A stretch of 64,000 nucleotides of DNA from Escherichia coli (GTDB lineage: Bacteria > Pseudomonadota > Gammaproteobacteria > Enterobacterales > Enterobacteriaceae), in the NCBI RefSeq assembly GCF_051903065.1, contig NZ_CP178439.1; one strand, given 5' to 3'. The notes under the pieces are model-generated. The model was given only the letters and a program-made list of their open reading frames with translations, was not told where the DNA came from and did no database searches. A program made the translations under genes and the position numbers. This document shows positions 1 to 18,031 of this stretch, in pieces (the first letter of the stretch is position 1; every line of letters starts with the position of its first letter).

Positions 1-876
1 ATGATTAAAAACAACGAGTTAATCCATCCTTTTGACGTAACCAGTAATGAATCAGGTAAGACTTATCAACTGACGCCTAACTCGTCCAAGTCGGTTCAGC
101 CCGTGGCCCTGTTGAGATTGAGTGTATTTACCCCTGTCGGCACAAAAGAAAACCGCGACCGAAACTTTGAAGTTGATGCCTCTGATGAGCTTTCGTGTAT
201 GGAAATTGCAAGATCGGAGGGTTATGACGACATCAAGATAACTGGTGTCAAACTATCTATGTCTACCGACTTTAAGTGCTGGCTCGGGATCATCATGGCT
301 TTCAGTAAATATGGTTTTACTTCCGAGAAGATTACCCTGACTTTTAACGAGTTTGCGAAGATGTGTGGTATCAGTTCAACAAACATCAACAAACGAACTC
401 GTGCGCGCTTTAAAGAGTCATTAATGAACCTTGCATCGGTAGTGCTTGCCTTCTCAGACTCTCGGAGTGGTCGGTTCACAGTAACGCATCTGGTGCAGAA
501 GGCTATGATTGATCCAAAAAGCGATACTGTTGAGTTGGTTGGGGATCCTTCTATGTGGGAACTGTATCGTTACGACCATAAGACATTGTTAAGCCTTCAG
601 GTTCTATACATTTTGGCTAAAAAAGAAGCTGCGCAATCTCTCTATATTTATTTTGAAGCAATGCCAGCTGGTACGTTGTTCGTTAATATGAAACGGTTGA
701 GGGAAAGGTTGCTTCTTACAACCCCTATTCGTACGCAAAACCAGATAATTCGTAAAGCAATGCGGGAACTTGAATCTATCGGATATCTCGATTATCAAGA
801 AGTTAAGAAAGGTCGCGACATACAATTTCAGATCTTCAAAAGAAGCCCTAAGCTGGCCCTCGCCAAACAAGGTTGA
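1..876 (+). CDS. repA: Plasmid replication initiator RepA (P1 RepA / RepFIB-like family)
   Basis: 291-aa ORF starting at window position 1; blocks VQPVALLRL, EGYDDIKITG, STDFKCWLG, KKEAAQSLY, IGYLD and KKGRD match P1-type RepA as I remember it; iteron-like repeats follow immediately downstream. Confidence 0.75.
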   Translation: MIKNNELIHPFDVTSNESGKTYQLTPNSSKSVQPVALLRLSVFTPVGTKENRDRNFEVDASDELSCMEIARSEGYDDIKITGVKLSMSTDFKCWLGIIMAFSKYGFTSEKITLTFNEFAKMCGISSTNINKRTRARFKESLMNLASVVLAFSDSRSGRFTVTHLVQKAMIDPKSDTVELVGDPSMWELYRYDHKTLLSLQVLYILAKKEAAQSLYIYFEAMPAGTLFVNMKRLRERLLLTTPIRTQNQIIRKAMRELESIGYLDYQEVKKGRDIQFQIFKRSPKLALAKQG

Positions 877-1104
877 AAGCTACCAGGTATGCACTGGTTA
901 TAACATGCTGAAAAATAAGTTATTTATCAGTGCTATGCTTAGTGCTTCTTTTACTACTGGTCTTACATCTCGGCTTAATGTGCAAAAAAGTAACTTTTCA
1001 AACGAACTCCTGACTATTCATCTGTATGCCTTTCTGACTCAAGCGTACATGCTAGCCCATTCATTAAATGCCGTGGAGCAAGATGGTTTCGTGCGCACTC
1101 TATT

Positions 1105-1605
1105 CACGTGAATGCCTTTTGTGGATTACGCCTCTTACATTCATACAAATGCTTTTGATGTCGGTATCCCAAAAAATCATTCATTGAAATGCTTTTGTTT
1201 GCCACTGTATCCCGAGCATAGCTATGCAGTGGTATAAAAAGGCATTTTGGTGAATGGCATTAGGTCGAATGACACACAGTACAGCTTTGTTAAGAGCGAG
1301 AATGGTCCAAGACATCTATGACATTGGGCATCAGAAGGACTATGTGTTTGATATGAGATCAAAAAAATATCAGAAGCATCACAACTCCAATGGCATTCAA
1401 AGAAATGCCTTTGTTTTGTTAGTACACCAAACAACCCAAAATTCATGCAGTTATATCAAAGACTCATTCGCAAAAGGACTCAGCCAGAAAGCATTTGCTT
1501 AAATAGCATTGGCCAAAAGCATTCGAATGAATGATGTTCATATGGACAAGACAAAGTCCCACTCACGCCCAGAGGTGTAAAAGGCATTTAGATGAATGAC
1601 GCACC
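1105..1605. repeat. Iteron-like short repeats downstream of repA (core AATGCCTTTTG / CAAAAGGCATT, both orientations, about 7 copies); incA-like copy-control candidate
   Basis: Copies read near 1108, 1145, 1184, 1246, 1389-1420, 1513 and 1577; the position after the rep gene parallels P1 incA. Confidence 0.45.
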
Positions 1606-2024
1606 GGCCGAGGATTGTATGTAGTTTCTCCAACTGATAGTTGCCGAACCAGGGAGCACAGTGATATGCGGCCTTCTCAGAATCAAGAGATAGATATTAA
1701 GGGAACAAAAAAGATTAGATATGAAGCTTAGTTACCTGCCCGATATCTAGTTAGAGCTTTTCAAACCATCAAAAGTGACTTTTATGCTTGAGGAGTCTCA
1801 TCAGCTTCAGGATTGAGCTTAACGTAATCTTACCCCCTCCCCTCTTTCAAACTTTTACTAAGCGTTCACTGGTACTTTTCAAAGATTATGCTTTAGGCCC
1901 CTTTGCTTAAAAATTCACCAATCGCTAAACGTTAAAAAAAGGGGGTTTATGCGAACGGAAGGATCGGAATAAAAAAGTATTATTCATTCGCGTTTACGTG
2001 AACTCAAATCTACACGGAGTAATT

Positions 2025-2378
2025 ATGGAACTTTCTTTAAATATTGGCCTTAGTGAAAAGAAATCTAACACGGCTGCACTTTTTAAAACAAAAAGCGCAA
2101 AAGTGATTTTGTTTGTTCTGCTGACCGTGCTTTTTTGCGGTCTGGCATATGCGGGTTCAGATGATGGGGCACTGGGAGATATTTGGTCATACATGAGTGA
2201 AAGTATGACTGGAGCTCCGGGCAAAATTCTGGCAGCCGCGATGTTGATCTCAAGCGTATATTTCTCTGTCCTTAAGCCTAACCCGGGCCTGGCACTGGTT
2301 TCATTATTCATGATGCTGGTAATGGCCAACGGCGAGAAAATTATCAGCACCTTTATGGATGCTGGCGTACCGCTGTAA
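2025..2378 (+). CDS. trhA: F-type conjugative propilin (TraA/TrhA-like)
   Basis: About 118 aa with a long leader ending AYA and a mature part with two hydrophobic segments; first gene of a traA-L-E-K-B-V-C-ordered operon; RBS GGAG before the ATG at 2025 (track ORF starts at 1998). Confidence 0.55.
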   Translation: MELSLNIGLSEKKSNTAALFKTKSAKVILFVLLTVLFCGLAYAGSDDGALGDIWSYMSESMTGAPGKILAAAMLISSVYFSVLKPNPGLALVSLFMMLVMANGEKIISTFMDAGVPL

Positions 2379-2428
2379 TTTATTGTTAATCATGCATGAG
2401 GGGGTTCATCCCCCTCTCTGGATTTTTA

Positions 2429-2746
2429 ATGAGTAAGCAGAACGACGTTCCTCAGCATACCTATAGATTCCCTTTCAGGATCAACATGCCTCTACTGATT
2501 TTGTTTTGGGATGCAAAAAAAATAGGGCTTGCATTCATTCTGGTTGCATTTGGGAATATCTTCGAATGCTTCGGGTTTTCTGTTGTAGCAGCGGTTGTAT
2601 ATTGGATTGCGTATAACAAAGCAGCTGAGTCAGGAATAAGAGGATTGCTAAAACACAGACTCTGGTGGCTCGGTTTTTTGCCAGGTAAAGCAGTTTTTAG
2701 TAGCCGTTATTTCAACGATCCATTTATCAGAGATTTGTATTCTTGA
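2429..2746 (+). CDS. trhL: TraL-like pilus assembly protein
   Basis: YRFPFRINMPLLILFWDA matches the TraL YRFP...FWD signature; small membrane protein; position after the pilin gene. Start taken at the internal Met (track ORF 2396). Confidence 0.6.
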   Translation: MSKQNDVPQHTYRFPFRINMPLLILFWDAKKIGLAFILVAFGNIFECFGFSVVAAVVYWIAYNKAAESGIRGLLKHRLWWLGFLPGKAVFSSRYFNDPFIRDLYS

Positions 2747-2757
2747 TGGAGCTATGA

Positions 2758-3546
2758 ATGAAAATGCTAAGTGGCATTAACATCCCTTTTTTCAAAAAAT
2801 CTAAAAAGGATGAAAACGGTGATCTTGAACAGTCATACGTAAAGAAAGATGAAAGTGCTAAGGGACGTTTTTTGGACATTAAAAAACGATTTAGCCCACA
2901 AGCTGAAGCGTCAGGTGCTGGAATTACATACAGCGCCCTGATTAATCGTGATACAAAACTTATCCGCATTAATACTGTTTCAATAGCCGTCATTGGGTTA
3001 TTGGTTGCAAAGATTCTTTTTTTCACTGACCCAGTGACGATTGTTACCCCTCCAAACATGAATGAAGAGATCACGGTTGTTGGTAACAAAGCATCGGAAT
3101 CTTATAAAACACAATGGGCTCTCTTTTTTAGTACCCTTTTAGGGAATATTAATCCAACTAATATTTCCTTTGTGACGGCCTATGTCCTCGATGCCCTTTC
3201 ACCTGAACTACAGGCTAAAACGAGTGAGTCTTTACAGGAGCAGATAAATATCATGCAGGCTCGTGGTGTTGAGCAGACCTTTAAGCCTAATGATATTTAC
3301 TTTGATCCAAAAAATGACATGGTCTATGTCTGGGGTACCAAAACGACTCGACTTGTAAATGTTCCGGACAAAACTGAATCATCGAAATGGACTTATGAAT
3401 GGGTTCTCGGGATGAAAAATGGTCGCCCAAGAATTGCATATGTAAATCAATATTCCGGAACACCGAATATTAAAAAAATTACGATAAACGGCAAAGAGCA
3501 ACTGGCAACGCTGGATAATCCGCCACCGTCTACAGGTAACAAGTGA
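2758..3546 (+). CDS. trhE: TraE-like (VirB8-like) mating-pair-formation protein
   Basis: 262 aa with an N-terminal transmembrane anchor (SIAVIGLLVAKILFF); operon position; GGAG RBS 6 nt upstream. Confidence 0.6.
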   Translation: MKMLSGINIPFFKKSKKDENGDLEQSYVKKDESAKGRFLDIKKRFSPQAEASGAGITYSALINRDTKLIRINTVSIAVIGLLVAKILFFTDPVTIVTPPNMNEEITVVGNKASESYKTQWALFFSTLLGNINPTNISFVTAYVLDALSPELQAKTSESLQEQINIMQARGVEQTFKPNDIYFDPKNDMVYVWGTKTTRLVNVPDKTESSKWTYEWVLGMKNGRPRIAYVNQYSGTPNIKKITINGKEQLATLDNPPPSTGNK

Positions 3547-4817
3547 TGATTAAAAAAAAGGGCTTAGGGTTCAACGCAATTACCGCATTGATCATGCTCA
3601 CGACTTCGAACTGCGTAATCGCTGAAGAATACCAATTGCCAGCAACAATTAATAACCCGGTTGTAATGCCAGTTGGTGCTGACGGATTTCAGAATGGAGC
3701 TGCAAAAGCCATTATTCCGGGTCAAGCTGGTTCTGAACAGTCAGGTGCACAAACAAACCTTAGTGAAGCCGGTAATGCGCAGGGACAAAAACCTACAACT
3801 GATCTCCCTACCGTGCAACTTTCCCCAGCCAGCAATGCTTCGCCTGCGGTAAGCGCTATTACTGGAGCATTATCAAATAATCCTAGTCTCCCCGGATTTG
3901 ACGCACAGACCCGCTCTGGTGCAATTGATAGCTATGGGAGACCAACAGGTACCTCTTCCCAGCAGAATGCAACCAATGCGACCGCCACGTCAAAAGCCGA
4001 TGAACTTTATGTCGAAGCTCGTAACCGATATAAAGAAGTTCAGCGTGTAAATGTGCCGCCTGGTGGGAATGTGGTACTGCCAGTTTCACGAGGACTTCAA
4101 AACAGAATATCGACCAGCTTCAAGAATGCTTCTGTCAGCACTTCTACCCCTGCTGAAGAGGCAAGCATATTTGTTAATGGTGGCGATGTCTTTATTTCAA
4201 CTAATACCGATAAACCAATCGGGATTATGTTGTCGGAAGATCAGGTACCTGAATCGACCTATAACCTGACCCTGGTACCGCTTGATGTTCCCGGTGCGAT
4301 GATTTCAGTTACTACATCTTTAAGCCCATCTATGCAAGCCAAACGTGAAACCTCATTGGATAAGCAAAACTATGAGGAAATGTTGGCCCGCTCCCAGTCA
4401 GAAGAACTGGCTCCATCGGATCCAAAACAAGACGATCATAAACAAAGAATCATTGATTTATTGACTCCTGTGGCTCTTGGTGAGGTCCCTTCAGGATTCA
4501 GTTTACAACAGGACCGACTTTCTCGTATTCCTGCGTCAGAGCAGTCCCCATGTAACTTTAATATGTATGCAAAGCTCGGTCAGAGACTGGTTGGCTCACG
4601 TGAACTTATTGATGTAATTCTTGTGAAAAACGATAAACCATACGGTCAAATCGTTGCTGATCAGCAGTGTATGGCAGAAGGCGTTATTGCAAGTGCTTTA
4701 TTTGATAAAGCATACCTGCAACCGGGAGAAGAAACAGAGCTTTACATAGTCCGGGATAAATTGTTCAAGGAACGCGAGGCCCGGGTTACAACCAGACCAA
4801 GTCTAATCAGAAAATAA
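3543..4817 (+). CDS. trhK: TraK-like secretin-type mating-pair-formation protein
   Basis: 424 aa with a signal peptide; operon position between traE-like and traB-like genes; start overlaps the trhE stop. Confidence 0.5.
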   Translation: MMIKKKGLGFNAITALIMLTTSNCVIAEEYQLPATINNPVVMPVGADGFQNGAAKAIIPGQAGSEQSGAQTNLSEAGNAQGQKPTTDLPTVQLSPASNASPAVSAITGALSNNPSLPGFDAQTRSGAIDSYGRPTGTSSQQNATNATATSKADELYVEARNRYKEVQRVNVPPGGNVVLPVSRGLQNRISTSFKNASVSTSTPAEEASIFVNGGDVFISTNTDKPIGIMLSEDQVPESTYNLTLVPLDVPGAMISVTTSLSPSMQAKRETSLDKQNYEEMLARSQSEELAPSDPKQDDHKQRIIDLLTPVALGEVPSGFSLQQDRLSRIPASEQSPCNFNMYAKLGQRLVGSRELIDVILVKNDKPYGQIVADQQCMAEGVIASALFDKAYLQPGEETELYIVRDKLFKEREARVTTRPSLIRK

Positions 4818-4938
4818 TATGGGAAAAGTTACTTTGCCTGCTCTGCTTGGGGCCACCGTGATTGGTTTTGTCGTATTTGCTTTAACCAGCTTTTACTACA
4901 GGTCAGAATATATACCAAAAAGGGGTAATGACTCCAAC

Positions 4939-5442
4939 TTATTGATAGTGTTTTATGTTCAGATAATGCCCGATGACTTTGTCATGCAGCTCCACCGATT
5001 TTGAGAACGACAGCGACTTCCGTCCCAGCCGTGCCAGGTGCTGCCTCAGATTCAGGTTATGCCGCTCAATTCGCTGCGTATATCGCTTGCTGATTACGTG
5101 CAGCTTTCCCTTCAGGCGGGATTCATACAGCGGCCAGCCATCCGTCATCCATATCACCACGTCAAAGGGTGACAGCAGGCTCATAAGACGCCCCAGCGTC
5201 GCCATAGTGCGTTCACCGAATACGTGCGCAACAACCGTCTTCCGGAGCCTGTCATACGCGTAAAACAGCCAGCGCTGGCGCGATTTAGCCCCGACATAGC
5301 CCCACTGTTCGTCCATTTCCGCGCAGACGATGACGTCACTGCCCGGCTGTATGCGCGAGGTTACCGACTGCGGCCTGAGTTTTTTAAGTGACGTAAAATC
5401 GTGTTGAGGCCAACGCCCATAATGCGGGCTGTTGCCCGGCAT
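4939..5442 (-). CDS. insB: IS1 InsB (normally made as an InsAB fusion by frameshifting)
   Basis: 167-aa [25 protein letters not shown] matches IS1 InsB as I remember it. Confidence 0.85.
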
Positions 5443-5636
5443 CCAACGCCATTCATGGCCATATCAATGATTTTCTGGTGCGTACCGGGTTGAGAAGCGG
5501 TGTAAGTGAACTGCAGTTGCCATGTTTTACGGCAGTGAGAGCAGAGATAGCGCTGATGTCCGGCGGTGCTTTTGCCGTTACGCACCACCCCGTCAGTAGC
5601 TGAACAGGAGGGACAGCTGATAGAAACAGAAGCCAC
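5361..5636 (-). CDS. insA: IS1 InsA
   Basis: 91-aa [42 protein letters not shown] matches IS1 InsA as I remember it. Confidence 0.9.
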
Positions 5637-6033
5637 TGGAGCACCTCAAAAACACCATCATACACTAAATCAGTAAGTTGGCAGCATCACCCAAAAAGGA
5701 GTGTATTAATCGTTCCGGACGCACCCATTAGTATCGAAGATGGCAGTAACGCTTTTCCCGTTCAGACAGTAATAATGAACGATCCAACTCTTATTGATAA
5801 ATTTGTAGGAGAGGACAATATTAATGAGGAGAATGCTTTTGACTATCACAAAAGTAACGTTTTGGAACCTAATTACAAACATGAAATATCTAGAACGAGC
5901 CAGATAGATAAAGCTGAAATGAATCATCCATCTGTTCGTGAAAACTGGGCCAGAGCAGGTGATCCCTATATCGTTCCTCAGATGTCTGACAGCGAACGAA
6001 ATCTAAAAATTAAACGATTCCAGAAACCTACAA

Positions 6034-9730: not shown

Positions 9731-12412
9731 ATGGAAGCTATCAATAATTACAATAGCGGTTTAAATCGCCATCAATTAGGTGGGTTTATCCCTGTTTACG
9801 ATCAATTAGCAGGGACTCACTATTTTTTGATTGATGGCAACAGATTAGGGTTTATGTTTATCTGTAATCCATCACCTGGAGTTTTTGATAATCAGCAAGA
9901 TGTTCTTGCTGAAATGTTCAAAATGGATTTTCCTACAGATACTGTCTGTCAAATATCTCTGACTGCATTGCCAGACTTGACTTTACAGCTTAGTGCTTGG
10001 TCAGCTGTGCGAGGTGGGCGTATGACTGGGAACGATAAGCTTAAAGCAGATCTGCTTAATGGTTATCAGTTGGACTACTACGACAGAAGTATGCATAAGC
10101 CTTTAAAACCTGATCATGATAACCTTATGTTGAGGGATTTTCAGGTATGGATCTCGCTATCGATTCCTTTACAGTCTGCCCTTCCTACCGAGCTGGAACA
10201 TTCGCGTATCGATTCACTTTACTCTGAACTTGTAAGTAAGTTAATTACGATTGGACTGCATCCGTTTAAGGTCGATGCAGAAAACTGGCTCTATTGTATA
10301 GATAAGGTCGTAAACCCCGGAAAGAACTCTCGGTGGGCTGAAGGTTTTATAGACGTTAACACTATGAAAAGGCTTAATGAACAAGTTAACGTTCCCGGCC
10401 GAAAGTATACAGTCACAGAAAATCATTTCTCATCAGTCACACAAAGTGACGACGAATCTGAGCATCGTTACTTCAAACAACTTTCCGTTGTAAAGTTTCC
10501 TGAATACGTCAATTTCGGTTGTATGTATGAGTTAGTAGTTAACTGGATGCATGGACGTAAGACAATTTTCAGCCCATTTATGATCACTCAGACTGTTCAG
10601 TTTGCCGATCCGCTCAAGTTGTCAAAAGAAAACGTCCGCTACAAAGCAATCACTAATAAACAGGCAAGTATACCTTCAGTTGTCACATTCTGCCCTCGCC
10701 TGCGGGATATGGATAATGACTACATGGCCGTAACTCGCGAGCTTGAGGATGGCGCAAAGCTTTTAAGAGGGTATCTTACTTTCACTGTTATGGGTAGTAA
10801 TGCCAATTCTGTGCAGACAGCAGCTAACGATCTCAAATCCTTTTACCTCGAAAGCCGGGTCAAAGTAGCAGATGATTCCTTTATCGTTTTCCCGTCATTT
10901 ATGTCATGTCTGCCAATGTGCAATGACCCAAAGACAATTTTCGACCTTGACCGTTCCGAAGTAGTGAGCAACACCGGAGCGGCTCATATGACGCCGATCT
11001 TTGGGCCCTGGAAAGGTAATACAGATAGACCAGTACTGAGTTTAGTTTCTCGTGAAGGTCAACTCATGGGACTTGATATTTTCAAGACTTCTGCAAGCTA
11101 TAACATGGTTATTGGTGCAACGTCAGGTGCAGGCAAGTCATTCTGGACAGCATATCTAATCAATAACTATCTTGGAGCTGGACCGCGATCTAATAACCTC
11201 GTTCATTATCGCTCAACATTTAAGCATTTTTTAGAAAACGAATACCCAGATGATGATCCTGATGGTGCTCAAGTTTTTGTAGTGGACGTGGGGCGTTCTT
11301 ACCAGGGGATTGCGGAACAATATACAAACAGTCAATTTATTGATTTCGGTAAAACCCCTGACTTCACCCTAAATCCCTTTGCCTTCCTAACTGACATCAC
11401 TGTTAACGACGATGTATTTAACGAAGCACCTGAATTTACCGGTGAATCAACTTCAAACGATGCAGAAAAAGACAAAGTTGCTCAGACCATAATGGTTCTG
11501 AATCAGCTAAAAATTATGGCTTCAGAGAAAGGCCTTATCGATGATTATCAACAATCAGTGATGCTTCAGCTTATTGCAGAAGAGTACCAGGAATCCAGAA
11601 AATCAGGTCGGACCGGTTCAATAACCGGCTTTGCTCTGCGTTGCAAGAAGCATGAAGACAAACGTATAAAGGATATTGGGGAGCAACTCGGAGCATGGTG
11701 CGAAGGTGGAATTTATGGGCACCGGTTTACCGATACGTTGCCTCCAATCAACTTCGACAGCAGATTTATTGTTTTGGAACTGGAGGAGCTAAAAGGCACC
11801 CCCCACCTTCAGACAGTTGTTTTAATGTCTATCATTCAGGCTGCTCAGCATGCAATGTTCATCAAAAAAGATGGGCGTCGTCGCTTGTTCATCCTAGATG
11901 AAGCTTGGGAGTACATTCGTCCTGATAATTCATCAGGTGCCGGAAATCAATCAAACCAATTCTTCTCTTCCTTCCTCGAAGCGGCATGGCGTAGGTTCAG
12001 GAAAACAAACTGCGCTGGCATCTGTATCACACAGTCGTTTGAAGATTATTTTACTTCTTCTGTTGGCCGGGCCCTGACTGCTAACTCGCCTTGGAAGATA
12101 ATCATGAAACAAGAAAAAGAAAGCATTGAAGCAATGAAGGCTAATAAATATTTTTCTACTTCAGATGCAGAATATGAACGAATGAAAAATATTCGTACAG
12201 TCAAAAAGGTGTTTTCAGAGATGTTAGTCAGGTTCGAAAACTTCCAAGAGATCTGTCGGTTATACGTAGACCGGAAAATGGAGCTTTGTTTTACTACGGA
12301 TAGTGCTGACAGGAGTAAATTATGGGAAATTCAAAGCCGCGAGAATTGTAGCTATGGCGAGGCAATAGAAATTCTCTATGCTCAAGAAGTAGCAGCGGGT
12401 TTGGCCGCGTAG
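9731..12412 (+). CDS. trhC: TraC-like (VirB4 family) conjugative ATPase
   Basis: 893 aa; Walker A GATSGAGKS; Walker B-like LFILDEAWE; size and position typical of F-type TraC. Confidence 0.85.
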   Translation: MEAINNYNSGLNRHQLGGFIPVYDQLAGTHYFLIDGNRLGFMFICNPSPGVFDNQQDVLAEMFKMDFPTDTVCQISLTALPDLTLQLSAWSAVRGGRMTGNDKLKADLLNGYQLDYYDRSMHKPLKPDHDNLMLRDFQVWISLSIPLQSALPTELEHSRIDSLYSELVSKLITIGLHPFKVDAENWLYCIDKVVNPGKNSRWAEGFIDVNTMKRLNEQVNVPGRKYTVTENHFSSVTQSDDESEHRYFKQLSVVKFPEYVNFGCMYELVVNWMHGRKTIFSPFMITQTVQFADPLKLSKENVRYKAITNKQASIPSVVTFCPRLRDMDNDYMAVTRELEDGAKLLRGYLTFTVMGSNANSVQTAANDLKSFYLESRVKVADDSFIVFPSFMSCLPMCNDPKTIFDLDRSEVVSNTGAAHMTPIFGPWKGNTDRPVLSLVSREGQLMGLDIFKTSASYNMVIGATSGAGKSFWTAYLINNYLGAGPRSNNLVHYRSTFKHFLENEYPDDDPDGAQVFVVDVGRSYQGIAEQYTNSQFIDFGKTPDFTLNPFAFLTDITVNDDVFNEAPEFTGESTSNDAEKDKVAQTIMVLNQLKIMASEKGLIDDYQQSVMLQLIAEEYQESRKSGRTGSITGFALRCKKHEDKRIKDIGEQLGAWCEGGIYGHRFTDTLPPINFDSRFIVLELEELKGTPHLQTVVLMSIIQAAQHAMFIKKDGRRRLFILDEAWEYIRPDNSSGAGNQSNQFFSSFLEAAWRRFRKTNCAGICITQSFEDYFTSSVGRALTANSPWKIIMKQEKESIEAMKANKYFSTSDAEYERMKNIRTVKKVFSEMLVRFENFQEICRLYVDRKMELCFTTDSADRSKLWEIQSRENCSYGEAIEILYAQEVAAGLAA

Positions 12413-12442
12413 AGTAAATATCTTCAAGCAAAAACAATTAAA

Positions 12443-12471
12443 CCAGATGTCTCATAAGAATCTGGTTTTTT
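12443..12471 (+). terminator. Hairpin plus T-run after trhC
   Basis: CCAGATgtctcataagaATCTGG followed by TTTTTT. Confidence 0.5.
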
Positions 12472-12829
12472 ATTGTATGCCTTAAGTAAACAAATGAGGT
12501 TATGACTTAATGAGTTCATCACTGTGCTGCAAATTTTGGTTTTATAATTAATATGGCTTAAAAACAGTGACATAATTACAAATCGCATTTAGGTTGTGTA
12601 CGCATTAAGTAAACAAAATTTATAACATCAATACTGACTTTATAAGATGAAATTCACGTAAATTACATTTTTGTTTACCAAAGGTAATCAAAGGAGCGCG
12701 GCATTATTAGTGAAAACAGATCACTGGTGTCATATTGCATACAAAACTTAATATCCTTTAATCATTCTTCTAAAAGTTTAATATTAACGCTTTGGTTTAT
12801 GAAAATTTATCCAATTTGCTCACCGAAGA

Positions 12830-15800
12830 CTTTTAACTTATTTAACCCCCTTTATCGCCAATCTGTGATTTTCTAATGTTAGCCTACAGTTCTAGGGCCC
12901 TTGCTCCCATGATGCGAATCCTTCCACCTAATAAAGATTAACGCCTCATTCCTGTATGCCGGTCTTACGACGCCAGTGCTCGGGCTATTTTCGGTCCTAA
13001 CAAGACCTGGCGAGAGATTTAATCAGGGCGTGGTGTGACTGAGCAGCAGCTGGGGCACTGTTATCCGCTTGCAGATTTAACCCCCTTAATCGCCAAACTG
13101 GGGTACTGTCCTGATGCTGGCCTTCAGTTCTGGGCTGGGTGGCTATCACTTCCTCCCATAATGCGAAATGTAACTGCTGATACAGATTAACGTCATATTC
13201 CTGCGTGCCGGTCTGCCAACACCAGTGCACGGGCTTTTTTCGGTCATCACATTACCGGGCAGGAGATTTTATCAGGGCGTGGTGTGACTGAGCAGAAGCT
13301 GGGGCACTGTCAGCAGCTTGCAGATTTAACCCCCTTAATCGCCACACTGGGATTCTGGTCTGATATTGACCTTCCGTTCTGGGCGGGGTTCGGTTTGCTA
13401 ACACTTACTCCCATGATACGAAATGTGCCTGCTGATACAGATTAAAATCACATTACTGCATACCGGTCTGCCGACACCGGTGCATGGGCGATTTCCGACG
13501 ATCTCAAGAACATATGGGAGATTATATCAGGGAGAGTAGTATGCCTGAGCAGCATCTGAAGGCACTGTCAGCCGCTGTCAGATTTAACCCCCTTAATCGC
13601 CAAACTGGTGTTCTGTCCTCATGCAGGCCTTCAGTTCTGAGCTGGGTTGCTATCACTTGCTCCCATAATGCGAAATGTACCTGCTGATACAAATTAACGT
13701 CGTATTCCTGTATGCCGGTCTGCCGACACCAGTGCTCGGGCTATTTTCGGTCCTAACAAGACCTGGCGAGAGATTTAATCAGGGCGTGGTGTGACTGAGC
13801 AGCAGCTGGGGCACTGTTATCCGCTTGCAGATTTAACCCCCTTAATCGCCAAACTGGGGTACTGTCCTGATGCTGGCCTTCAGTTCTGGGCTGGGTGGCT
13901 ATCACTTCCTCCCATAATGCGAAATGTAACTGCTGATACAGATTAACGTCATATTCCTGCGTGCCGGTCTGCCAACACCAGTGCACGGGCTTTTTTCGGT
14001 CATCACATTACCGGGCAGGAGATTTTATCAGGGCGTGGTGTGACTGAGCAGAAGCTGGGGCACTGTCAGCAGCTTGCAGATTTAACCCCCTTAATCGCCA
14101 CACTGGGATTCTGGTCTGATATTGACCTTCCGTTCTGGGCGGGGTTCGGTTTGCTAACACTTACTCCCATGATACGAAATGTGCCTGCTGATACAGATTA
14201 AAATCACATTACTGCATACCGGTCTGCCGACACCGGTGCATGGGCGATTTCCGACGATCTCAAGAACATATGGGAGATTATATCAGGGAGAGTAGTATGC
14301 CTGAGCAGCATCTGAAGGCACTGTCAGCCGCTGTCAGATTTAACCCCCTTAATCGCCAAACTGGTGTTCTGTCCTCATGCAGGCCTTCAGTTCTGAGCTG
14401 GGTTGCTATCACTTGCTCCCATAATGCGAAATGTACCTGCTGATACAAATTAACGTCGTATTCCTGTATGCCGGTCTGCCGACACCAGTGCTCGGGCTAT
14501 TTTCGGTCCTAACAAGACCTGGCGAGAGATTTAATCAGGGCGTGGTGTGACTGAGCAGCAGCTGGGGCACTGTTATCCGCTTGCAGATTTAACCCCCTTA
14601 ATCGCCACACTGGGGTTCAGTCCTGATAGTGTCCTTCCGTCCTGGGCTCGGTTGCTAACACTTGCTCCCATTGCGCCTGCTGATACAGATTAAAGTCACA
14701 TTACTGCATACCGATCTGCCGACTCCGGTGCATGGCTTTTTCCGATAATCACAAGGACGGACGGGTGATTTTATCTTTGCATAGTATGTCTGAGCAGCAT
14801 CAGAAGGCTCTGTCAGCCACTGGCAGATTTAACCCCCTTAATCTCCAAACTGGGATCAGTCCTGATAGTGTCCTTCCGTCCTGGGCAGGGTTGCTAACAC
14901 TTGCTCCCATGATACGAAATGCGCCAGCTGATACAGATTAACGTCTCATTACTCCATGCCGGTCTGCCGAAACTGGTGCATAGCTTTTTTCGATATTCGC
15001 ATGAACAGACGCTTGATTTTTTCAGGTTGTAATATACCTGAGCAGCATCTGAAGGCACTTTCAGTCTCTGTCAGATTTAACCCCCTTAATCGCCAATCTG
15101 GGATTTTCTGATGTTAACCTACAGTTCAAGGCCCTTGCTCCCATGATGCGAACCTTGCAACCTGATAAAGATTTAAGCCTCATTCCTGTATGCCGGTCTT
15201 ACGACTCTAGTGCACGGGGACTATTTTCGGTCATAATAAGACCTGGCGGGAGATTTAATCAGGCGTGGTGTGACTGAGCAGAAGCTGGGGCACTGTCAGC
15301 CGCTGGCAGATTAAAACCCTTTATTCGCCATCTCAAGACGTCATTATGGGTAGTCCTTTTAACTTTCTAAGGACCATTAAGCTTAAACTCCGTTTAGAGA
15401 ATGACGTAAGATTTAGGCTAAGCAGGTTAAGTGATCCCCGCTCCCGGGTTGAACACTTTATTCATCGTACGAGCGAAAGATTGTCCTTCGGGAAATATTT
15501 CTTATACACCGCTCGGGCACTTACAGCCACTGGCGGATTTAACCCCCTTAATCGCCAAACTGGGGTACTGTCCTGATGCTGGCCTTCAGTTCTGGGCTGG
15601 GTGGCTATCACTTGCTCCCCTAATGCGAAATGTGTCTGTTGATACAGATTAACGTCATTTTCCTGCGTGCCGGTCTGCCGACACCAGTGCACGGCCTTTT
15701 TTCGGTCATTACATTACCGGGCAGGAGATTTTATCAGGGCGTGGTGTTACTGAGCAGGAGCTGGGGCACTATCAGCAGCTTGCATATTTAACTCCCTTAA

Positions 15801-16410
15801 TCGCCAAACTGGTGTTCTGTCCTCATGCTGGCCTTCAGTTCTGGGCTGGGTTGCTATCTCTTGCTCCCATAATGCGAAATGTATCTGCTGATACAGATTA
15901 ACGTCATATTCCTGTATGCCGGTCTGCCGACACCAGTGCTTGGGCTATTTTCGGTCATAACAAGACCTGGCGAGAGATTTACTCAGGGCGTGGTGTGACT
16001 GAGCAGCAGCTGGGGCACTGTCATCCGCTTGCAAATTTAACCCCCTTAATCGCCAAACTTGGGTTTTGTCCTGATGCTGGCCTTCCGTTCTGGGCGGGGT
16101 TGCTATCACTTGCTCCCATCATGCGAAAAGTGCCTGCTGATACAGATTAACGTCATATTCCTTCATGCCGGTCTGCCGACACAAATGCACGGGCTTTTTT
16201 CGGTCCTTACAATACCGGGCAGGAGATTTAATCAGGGCGTGGTGTGACTGAGCAGCAGCTAGGACACTGTCAGCCGCTGGCAGATTTAACCCCCTTAATC
16301 GCCACACTGGGGTTGCCTCCTGAAGTTGGGTTTCAGTTCTGGGCTAGGTTGCTAACTCTGCTCCCATAATTCGTAGTGGGCCTACTCAAGAGATTAACAC
16401 CTCATATCTT
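12830..16410. repeat. Tandem array of about 15 units of about 249 bp, including a near-identical 756-bp (three-unit) duplication
   Basis: Anchor CAGATTTAACCCCCTTAATCGCCA recurs at about 12836, 13072, 13321, 13579, 13828, 14077, 14335, 14584, 14824, 15072, 15306, 15534, 15782, 16032 and 16281; track ORF pairs 12997..13230 / 13753..13986 and 13484..13687 / 14240..14443 are identical. Confidence 0.9.
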
Positions 16411-16711
16411 TAGACTGGACTGACGACAACGATTCACAGTTAGGAAACGTAAATCAGCACACCGGTGAGATAGATTTTAGGGTCTAAGCAAGAAATAGGG
16501 TAGGCGTGAAGATTCATTAATGGAGCTCATAACGTCAAAGCGTAGAGAAGTCGACAAGAATCGTGGTTTAAAAAGAATGAGCATTAGGTATGGACTAGAG
16601 AGTCTGAGCTCTCATCTGCAAGTTAAGCTCACAAAAAATCATAAAAAAGTAAACAAACATTAGCTTAGGATTGAAACAAAGGATAGAATTGTACGTATAA
16701 CAATGAAATGG

Positions 16712-16749
16712 ACGCATTATGCGTAAAGTTTACATATATGCGTAAAAGT
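16712..16749. promoter_or_regulatory. Palindrome ACGCATTATGCGT and nearby ATGCGTAAA half-site upstream of parA; candidate operator
   Basis: Perfect 13-bp palindrome about 55 bp before the parA start; type I ParA proteins with N-terminal extensions autoregulate at such sites. Confidence 0.3.
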
Positions 16750-16777
16750 CGGTTTTCAGTGCAAAAAGGTCATAACC

Positions 16778-18031
16778 ATGAATTTACTTGAAAAGATCGC
16801 CCTCGTTGGTCAGCGCATGAAAAGCGAGCAGATTTCTCTTAAGGAATCTCTGATGGCTTCATCAAGAGTATCTGTTTCTGATGATAGTGTTGATGGTGTT
16901 GATAGACTGATCTACAACCACTGTTTAAATAAAAAAAATCTCTCTGATTTTTTTGGGAAGTCACGAGTAACGTTCAATAAAATACTTTCGGACTTAGAAG
17001 AAAAAGAACTTGTTGGTGCACCTATTTATCAAAACAAAAATCATCTTTACACCCGCTGGGATGTTCAAAAAATAATGGATGCCCTGGGTTATCCCAAGTA
17101 CCGCGATCATTACTTTAGCAGAGCTATTGTTACTCAGAATCATAAAGGCGGTACAGGGAAAAGCACTACATCTGTAGCTTTAGCAGTAGCAGCTGCTTTA
17201 GATCTACAACTGAATGCACGTGTATTAATGATCGAATGGGACCCACAAGGTTCGATTGGAAGCAGCATGATTCAAAGTGTCTCAGAAGATGATGTCTTCC
17301 TTACAGCAATTGATGCAATCCTTGGAATTTATGAAGAAAATTCTGAGTATAAAAAATATTTAGATTCAGGATTCTCTGAAGAAGAAATCATCACTAATAT
17401 GCCTTTTTCAACGCATCTGCCAAACTTGGACGTGATAACGGCATTTCCGACAGATGCTCGTTTTAAAGATAAATACTGGCAATGTTCTAGAGAAGAACGA
17501 ACGTCTTTGTTACTACGTTTCAAGGAAGTTATCTTACCGGTACTGAAGCAGAACTATGATTTGATTATTATAGACACTCCACCTGAAGATTCACCTTTGA
17601 TCTGGGCTGCTGACGAAGCGGCCGATGGGATTCTTGTCGCAGTGTCACCACGTGAATATGATTACGCCTCTACTACAGACTTCATGCTTACAATAAGTGA
17701 AAGGTTTAAACAATCACCAAGTAAGGGCGATAATTTAAAATGGTTCAAAGTTCTTGCTGTCAATGTTGATGACAAAAGTCCATATGAAAGAATAGTTTTG
17801 GATAAATTAATCAGAACTGTTCAGGACCTTTTGATGTCCGCTAACATAAAAAATTCTGAAGCATTTAAGGCAGCTGCTTCCAAAGGGCGTACAGTGCTTG
17901 ATATCAAAAAATCAGAGGAACTTTGTTCCGCAAAGCAACTTGATGTCGCAGAAGAATCTGTATTACAGGTATATCAACAATTTATAAATGAAATAAAAAG
18001 TTTTTCAGCTAAGCAAGGAGTTAACGCATGA
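16778..18031 (+). CDS. parA: Partition ATPase ParA (type Ia, Walker type with N-terminal extension)
   Basis: 417 aa; deviant Walker A KGGTGKSTT; long N-terminal region typical of SopA/P1 ParA-type proteins. Confidence 0.85.
   Translation: MNLLEKIALVGQRMKSEQISLKESLMASSRVSVSDDSVDGVDRLIYNHCLNKKNLSDFFGKSRVTFNKILSDLEEKELVGAPIYQNKNHLYTRWDVQKIMDALGYPKYRDHYFSRAIVTQNHKGGTGKSTTSVALAVAAALDLQLNARVLMIEWDPQGSIGSSMIQSVSEDDVFLTAIDAILGIYEENSEYKKYLDSGFSEEEIITNMPFSTHLPNLDVITAFPTDARFKDKYWQCSREERTSLLLRFKEVILPVLKQNYDLIIIDTPPEDSPLIWAADEAADGILVAVSPREYDYASTTDFMLTISERFKQSPSKGDNLKWFKVLAVNVDDKSPYERIVLDKLIRTVQDLLMSANIKNSEAFKAAASKGRTVLDIKKSEELCSAKQLDVAEESVLQVYQQFINEIKSFSAKQGVNA

Follow-up and report, generated by a model that had tools for sequence, protein, structure and literature searches.

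The window, that is the whole 64-kb stretch of DNA that was analysed, opens at the start codon of a replication initiator gene, rep. Pfam recognized Rep3_N (E 6.3e-7, 30.3 bits, for a cut-off of 22.4) and Rep3_C (E 2.2e-4, 21.9 bits, for a cut-off of 21.1) in the product of this gene, which with its WH1 and WH2 domains belongs to the Rep_3 family of initiators. When Rep was compared with NCBIfam and with the sequences in PDB, no matches were returned, and no Rep paralogue was found in the window. The rep gene is followed by 1148 nt devoid of any credible gene, and then by a Tra2-type transfer operon, in which a trhA-like gene at 2025 precedes TraL, TraE/K, TraK-secretin and htdO/trhB homologues. 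A cluster of iterons on both strands, which is the main subject of this analysis, occupies part of the intergenic region (Table 1).

Over positions 1-2400, the window and the same positions of R478 (NC_005211.1) show 17 differences (99.3% identity) and share the same starting ATG; Rep differs by one amino acid from the product of the first gene of R478, and trhA lies at the same position in both. This near-identity from base 1 identifies the gene at 1-876 as that of RepHIA, also named RepHI1A(R478) or repHI2A. The R478 initiator is listed as RepHIA (PMC6312765), and in PMC5034289, where Gilmour et al. 2004 is cited, the repHIA replicon is part of the minimal IncHI2 backbone. Positions 1-2000 are at least 99% identical in 1112 PLSDB plasmids of Salmonella, E. 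coli, Enterobacter and other hosts, and those examined among them were typed IncHI2A/MOBH/MPF_F. A 'distant' blastn search (word size 11) with positions 877-1700 gave 1118 plasmids with at least 95% identity, all of them IncHI2. RepHIA/RepHI1A(R478) of R478, the IncHI2 reference plasmid, was reportedly the subject of Page, Whelan & Colleran 2001 (Microbiology 147:1591) and of Gilmour et al. 2004 (Plasmid 52:182). In short, this replicon is the already described RepHIA of R478-type IncHI2 plasmids, real, ordinary and of low novelty; with respect to biology nothing new is added here, and what follows correctly recognizes a replicon architecture that had been described before.

Repeat finding between positions 850 and 2000 revealed a family of repeats of about 20 nt, in direct and inverted copies. 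The iteron unit is 19-22 bp long and reads CATTCA-N3-AAATGCYTTT or, in an extended reading, CATTCA-N3-AAATGC-Y-TTT(T)(G). Ten iterons were identified, eight strong and two degenerate, five of them on each strand (Table 1). The original prediction of an iteron cluster downstream of repA in both orientations was therefore borne out by motif enumeration. It had counted about seven copies on both strands between 1105 and 1605, which is right for the strong copies inside this interval, but the whole array has ten; the interval clips the copy at 1100-1121 and misses the one at 1014-1035, the rest of the array being inside. The 11-nt core that it had proposed, AATGCNTTTKG, does lead to the array, with 10 of its 32 one-mismatch matches in 1111-1588, but the true unit is about 19-22 bp.

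Table 1. Features of the rep-trhA region (coordinates are those of the window; exact match, match to ATTCANNNNAATGCYTTT without mismatch)
Feature	Sequence	Coordinates	Strand	Window-seeded score	IncHI1-only score	Remarks
rep (RepHIA, also RepHI1A(R478))		1..876	+			291 aa, winged-helix iteron-binding initiator, from the window's first ATG
DnaA-box-like 9-mer	TTTTGCACA	979-987
Downstream iteron array (incA-like)		1014..1599	both			ten iterons in 586 bp
Iteron 1	CTATTCATCTGTATGCCTTTCT	1014..1035	+	25.8	18.8	seed site
Iteron 2	CTATTCACGTGAATGCCTTTTG	1100..1121	+		17.5	exact match
DnaA-box-like 9-mer	TAATCCACA	1120..1128	-			1 mismatch; adjoins iteron 2
Iteron 3	ACATTCATACAAATGCTTTTGA	1137..1158	+		24.7	exact match
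Iteron 4	TCATTCATTGAAATGCTTTTGT	1177..1198	+		19.6	exact match
Iteron 5	CCATTCACCAAAATGCCTTTTT	1236..1257	-		16.3	exact match
Iteron 6, degenerate	TCATTCGACCTAATGCCATTCA	1251..1272	-	13.1	14.8	non-seed; 2 mismatches
Iteron 7	GCATTCAAAGAAATGCCTTTGT	1393..1414	+		15.8	exact match
Iteron 8, degenerate	CTATTTAAGCAAATGCTTTCTG	1485..1506	-	13.8	21.1	non-seed
Iteron 9	TCATTCATTCGAATGCTTTTGG	1513..1534	-		24.4	exact match
Iteron 10	TCATTCATCTAAATGCCTTTTA	1578..1599	-		24.2	exact match

The sequence ATTCANNNNAATGCYTTT was found 14 times in the 64 kb when up to two mismatches were allowed, compared with 2.9 +/- 1.7 matches expected, and none of 100 shuffles reached 14. Ten of the 14 matches lie within 1016-1597, and all seven exact matches lie within 1102-1597, four on the plus strand and three on the minus strand. 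When the 1148-nt intergenic region was simulated with a first-order Markov model, the IncHI1-only weight matrix described below found 0.04 matches on average and never more than 2. Shuffles and simulations thus remained far below the observed number, which excludes chance as the cause of the clustering.

A weight matrix seeded with sites of the window found eight sites scoring 25-30 and two weaker ones at 13-14, all in 1014-1599, and the rest of the window reached at most 13.4. An independent 22-nt matrix, which avoids circularity, was built from 20 iterons of the IncHI1 plasmid p30155-1 (L002) alone, with no input from the window. This IncHI1-only matrix retrieved the identical ten sites (scores 14.8-24.7); it also gave one complementary-strand echo and, elsewhere in the 64 kb, two weak matches (scores 10-11). 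Each iteron contains an imperfect internal dyad, GCATT-N6-AATGC (for example at 1171-1198, 1387-1414 and 1513-1540 of the window, and at 3885-3912 of the plasmid L001), because of which the complementary strand also scores with the matrix, at an offset of 6 nt. This dyad might reflect the reading of similar half-sites by two winged-helix domains, or the binding of a dimer.

The array begins 137 nt past the rep stop codon and ends 425 nt ahead of trhA. Two stretches within it, of about 120 and 70 nt, contain no iteron, and iterons 5 and 6 share a 7 nt overlap. All ten iterons are unchanged in R478, none of the 17 differences falling inside an iteron. Only five of these differences are located within the array, of which iterons cover about 36% (P ~0.11); the avoidance of iterons by substitutions is therefore not significant and carries no weight.

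As the window itself opens at rep, the DNA upstream of this gene was read in L001, a plasmid that agrees with bases 1-4923 of the window. Four iterons start there at -136, -115, -94 and -71 relative to rep, and a degenerate copy lies in register at -157. All are in one orientation, with spacings of 21, 21, 21 and 23 bp, and the last one ends 50 bp before the ATG. Matrix scanning showed that their motif is the same as that of the downstream iterons. To the left of these iterons, four (A/T)AGATCA heptamers are present within 45 bp (L001 3750-3800), and further left lies a block with 80-85% AT. Column by column, IncHI1 and IncHI2 can be aligned over this upstream origin block, made up of the GATC heptamers and the iterons. 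Next to the GATC cluster, on its left, the IncHI1 origin carries two good tandem DnaA boxes, TTATCCACG and TTTTCCACA, whereas the same positions are degenerate in IncHI2 (TTATCATTG and TTTTCAACA, 1-4 mismatches), and the two groups may differ in their DnaA dependence. Origin-side iterons and DnaA boxes had both been predicted to lie upstream of the window: the tandem iterons are indeed there, but the DnaA boxes are weakly present, being degenerate in IncHI2. A promoter scan detected no sigma-70-like site over the origin-side iterons, so that autoregulation is unsupported by the sequence.

Since the downstream DNA gave no alignment across lineages, relatives beyond IncHI2 were sought by way of Rep. 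When the downstream region of IncHI1 was aligned with that of IncHI2 in MAFFT, the pairwise result was essentially noise, except for the last ~60 nt before trhA. In p30155-1, the Rep of which is 86% identical, 16 copies of the iteron were found downstream of rep, 3 in one orientation followed by 13 in the opposite one, most of them about 43-44 bp apart. In pCF_324-2 (Rep 87% identical) there are 18 downstream copies, 3 then 15. The consensus CATTCA-N3-AAATGCTTTT is kept downstream of rep in both plasmids, and the same consensus characterizes four sets of iterons, those upstream and downstream of rep in IncHI2 and those upstream and downstream of rep in IncHI1. A motif that is retained while its copies change in number, order and orientation and the spacers are exchanged is to be expected where a conserved protein binds, but not in a gene or an RNA.

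The RepHI1A replicon of IncHI1 plasmids has a Rep 86% identical to RepHIA and the same iteron consensus; the two replicons also share the origin block, with its GATC heptamers and five iterons spaced by 21 bp, and the synteny, from the upstream hypothetical gene to trhA. They differ in the downstream array, regular (3+13) in IncHI1 and made of 10 dispersed copies (5+5) in IncHI2, with unalignable spacers, and in the quality of the tandem DnaA boxes described above. RepHI1A of the IncHI1 plasmid R27 is said to have been studied in Newnham & Taylor 1994 (Mol Microbiol 11:757); the repeats downstream of the R27 gene are reportedly dispensable, their deletion reportedly raises the copy number, and the cloned fragment is said to exert incompatibility.

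In more distant relatives, the Cronobacter plasmid pA137-2 (Rep 62% identical), IncFIB(K) (46%) and an IncFIB-typed plasmid (43%), a lineage-specific iteron is present on both sides of rep; in all three the upstream iterons are in tandem, about 21 bp apart, and the downstream copies face both ways. For the Rep of the IncFIB-typed plasmid, the match to phage SSU5 and to relatives of this phage is likewise at 43%. RepFIB-type replicons (IncFIB(K), pHCM2/SSU5-like phage-plasmids, Cronobacter pA137-2) and F incC resemble RepHIA in having iterons on two sides, with 43-62% identity of Rep in the RepFIB-type replicons, and differ from it in iteron sequences, copy numbers and neighbouring genes. As judged from these sequences, the two-sided iteron architecture is a trait of the family.

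The parallel with P1 incA that had been drawn in the original prediction was upheld at the levels of initiator and layout. Rep is 44.6% identical to P1 RepA (92% coverage, E 1e-66, tblastn to P1 repA). In the annotated P1 record, a DnaA site is followed by five Dam (GATC) sites, five incC iterons, repA and nine incA iterons, in this order. Both sets of iterons are annotated as binding RepA. The incC iterons are spaced by about 21 bp and overlap PrepA; three incA iterons are oriented as incC and six are in the opposite orientation. The P1 replicon (oriR/incC - repA - incA) and the RepHIA replicon have the same order of parts, the DnaA boxes being degenerate in IncHI2, homologous initiators, and a downstream array in which the origin iteron is present in both orientations. 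The arrays differ in that incA contains 9 copies (3+6) in 285 bp, fairly regularly spaced from the repA stop codon, compared with 10 copies (5+5) in 586 bp, starting 137 nt past the stop codon and with gaps of up to 120 nt, in RepHIA; in addition, the P1 iteron sequence (GATGTGTGCTGGAGGGAAA) is unrelated. P1 incA is the textbook example of iteron-mediated negative control by handcuffing.

We propose, with a probability of about 0.85, that the region 1014-1599 is an auxiliary, incA-like array of Rep-binding iterons that restrains the origin by titration and handcuffing, a proposal made from sequence comparisons and from the P1, F and RepFIB paradigm. By analogy with these systems, Rep monomers would bind each 19-22 bp iteron, and monomers bound to the origin iterons would open the AT-rich region, the origin proper being expected just upstream of rep. 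The downstream sites are irregularly spaced and face both ways, and so would not initiate replication, for which the array would be non-essential. Instead, the ten sites would soak up Rep and lower the amount of free Rep (titration). Rep-Rep contacts would also pair the array with origin iterons, by looping in cis or between sister copies, and this handcuffing would block origin opening as the copy number rises. Handcuffing is described as the general negative control of iteron plasmids in PMC6312765, where Das & Chattoraj 2004 is cited. Together, titration and handcuffing would enable the array to hold a 200-300 kb plasmid at low copy number. The array should also exert incompatibility against replicons that carry the same iterons, including IncHI1 RepHI1A; the iteron consensus common to IncHI1 and IncHI2 provides a sequence-level reason to expect such cross-incompatibility.

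We considered whether the downstream cluster could itself be the origin, or a second origin, the upstream set being only the rep operator. Within the 2.7 kb of IncHI2 DNA scanned for DnaA boxes none was found upstream, where the boxes are degenerate, and the only DnaA-box-like 9-mers, TAATCCACA and TTTTGCACA, lie downstream, as an origin at this place would have it. However, these matches are at chance level, about 0.6 9-mers like TAATCCACA and about 0.2 like TTTTGCACA being expected in the 2.7 kb (hand arithmetic), and the one at 1120-1128 is probably a chance hit. An origin at this place also appears very unlikely because the downstream sites, irregular and two-way, lack an AT-rich block or a GATC cluster next to them, whereas 21-bp tandem iterons, GATC heptamers and 80-85% AT DNA are found upstream, conserved with IncHI1, in which the good tandem DnaA boxes are placed upstream exactly as in P1 oriR. 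Furthermore, the number of downstream copies varies from 10 to 18 between lineages, unlike an origin. A different departure from the incA model would be that the array is not a plain incA equivalent: dimers of Rep as well as monomers would bind it, and it would coordinate replication with the second replicon, RepHI2, or with Tra2 transcription, thereby coupling replication to conjugation. The internal dyad and the dispersed 5+5 layout, compared with the regular 43-44-bp tandem of at least 13 copies in IncHI1, are the features behind this reading, to which we give little credence.

The genes rep and trhA are read from the same strand, and the location of the array between the two would suit a Rep-bound element acting mainly on transcription, either as a roadblock or terminator of rep read-through or as a regulator or insulator of the trhA (Tra2) operon. 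A terminator scan flagged one iteron as terminator-like (1392-1409, iteron 7), and this iteron folds, by way of its internal dyad, into a hairpin of -8.4 kcal/mol (z -2.2), the only moderately stable one among the seven iterons folded; the other six folded no better than shuffled sequence, and the terminator reading was rejected for this reason. With sites on both strands, a last iteron 425 nt away from the trhA start codon, and the same arrays in relatives where the downstream genes are unrelated (integrase, par or phage genes), a mainly transcriptional role is very improbable in its other forms as well. Clustered two-way repeats are also typical of centromeres, and par modules are located within Tra2 in IncHI plasmids (PMC5034289). 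Nevertheless, a partition site bound by a Par protein is extremely improbable here, as the motif is identical to that of the set preceding rep and is absent near parA/parB (~16.8-19 kb), next to which a separate large repeat block is found. Finally, the cluster could be imagined to be a compositional artefact, or to stem from repeated codons in a small gene that escaped annotation. The region is indeed overlapped by several ORFs, 41-113 aa long (for example 1254-1502 on the plus strand and 1222-1446 on the minus strand), and some IncHI2 records annotate a hypothetical protein under 877-1700. The Pfam scan of four small ORFs of the region returned nothing meaningful, an Rfam search of 1-2600 with E up to 1 gave zero hits, and the motif persists on both strands although the DNA is unalignable with that of IncHI1; these results, and the shuffle and simulation controls, leave this last explanation with a next to negligible probability.

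An incA-like role would make the array the likely copy-number and incompatibility determinant of the RepHIA replicon, and over 1100 sequenced plasmids have this exact region. IncHI2 plasmids rank among the main vehicles of resistance to multiple drugs, colistin (mcr-9) and heavy metals. With respect to annotation, the 'hypothetical proteins' called in this intergenic region are probably spurious. A 'hypothetical protein' that the record of p30155-1 places at 3823-4167, minus strand, falls wholly inside the array of iterons spaced by about 43-44 bp, and it is probably a spurious gene call too.

Several other features of the window were observed in the course of this analysis. At 1898-1944, some 80 nt ahead of trhA, CCCCTTTGCTTAA and TTAAAAAAAGGGG form an inverted repeat around a 21-nt spacer; in R478, one of its arms has a 1-nt deletion, at position 1898. 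A regulatory function of this repeat in the Tra2 promoter region is conceivable. The window departs from L001 at base 4924, just past the TraK-secretin gene, and a 167-aa ORF on the minus strand at 4939-5442 looks like an InsB transposase of IS1, which points to the insertion of an IS into Tra2 at about 4924-5700; conjugation may be impaired by it.

A block of about 4.4 kb (12413-16777) separates a TraC-family ORF (9731-12412) from the ORF of a ParA-type ATPase (16778-18031), and contains no ORF of at least 90 aa on either strand. A candidate assignment of the repeats at 12.9-16.4 kb to an RSP Ig-like gene was rejected, as no ORF is present there. The repeats form a tandem array with a 249-bp period, at 12900-15330 (9.8 copies) and 15511-16370 (3.5 copies). 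The same gap, about 0.5 kb shorter, is unannotated in R478 too. The 249-bp repeats might form an array of partition sites or a cis element of some other kind.
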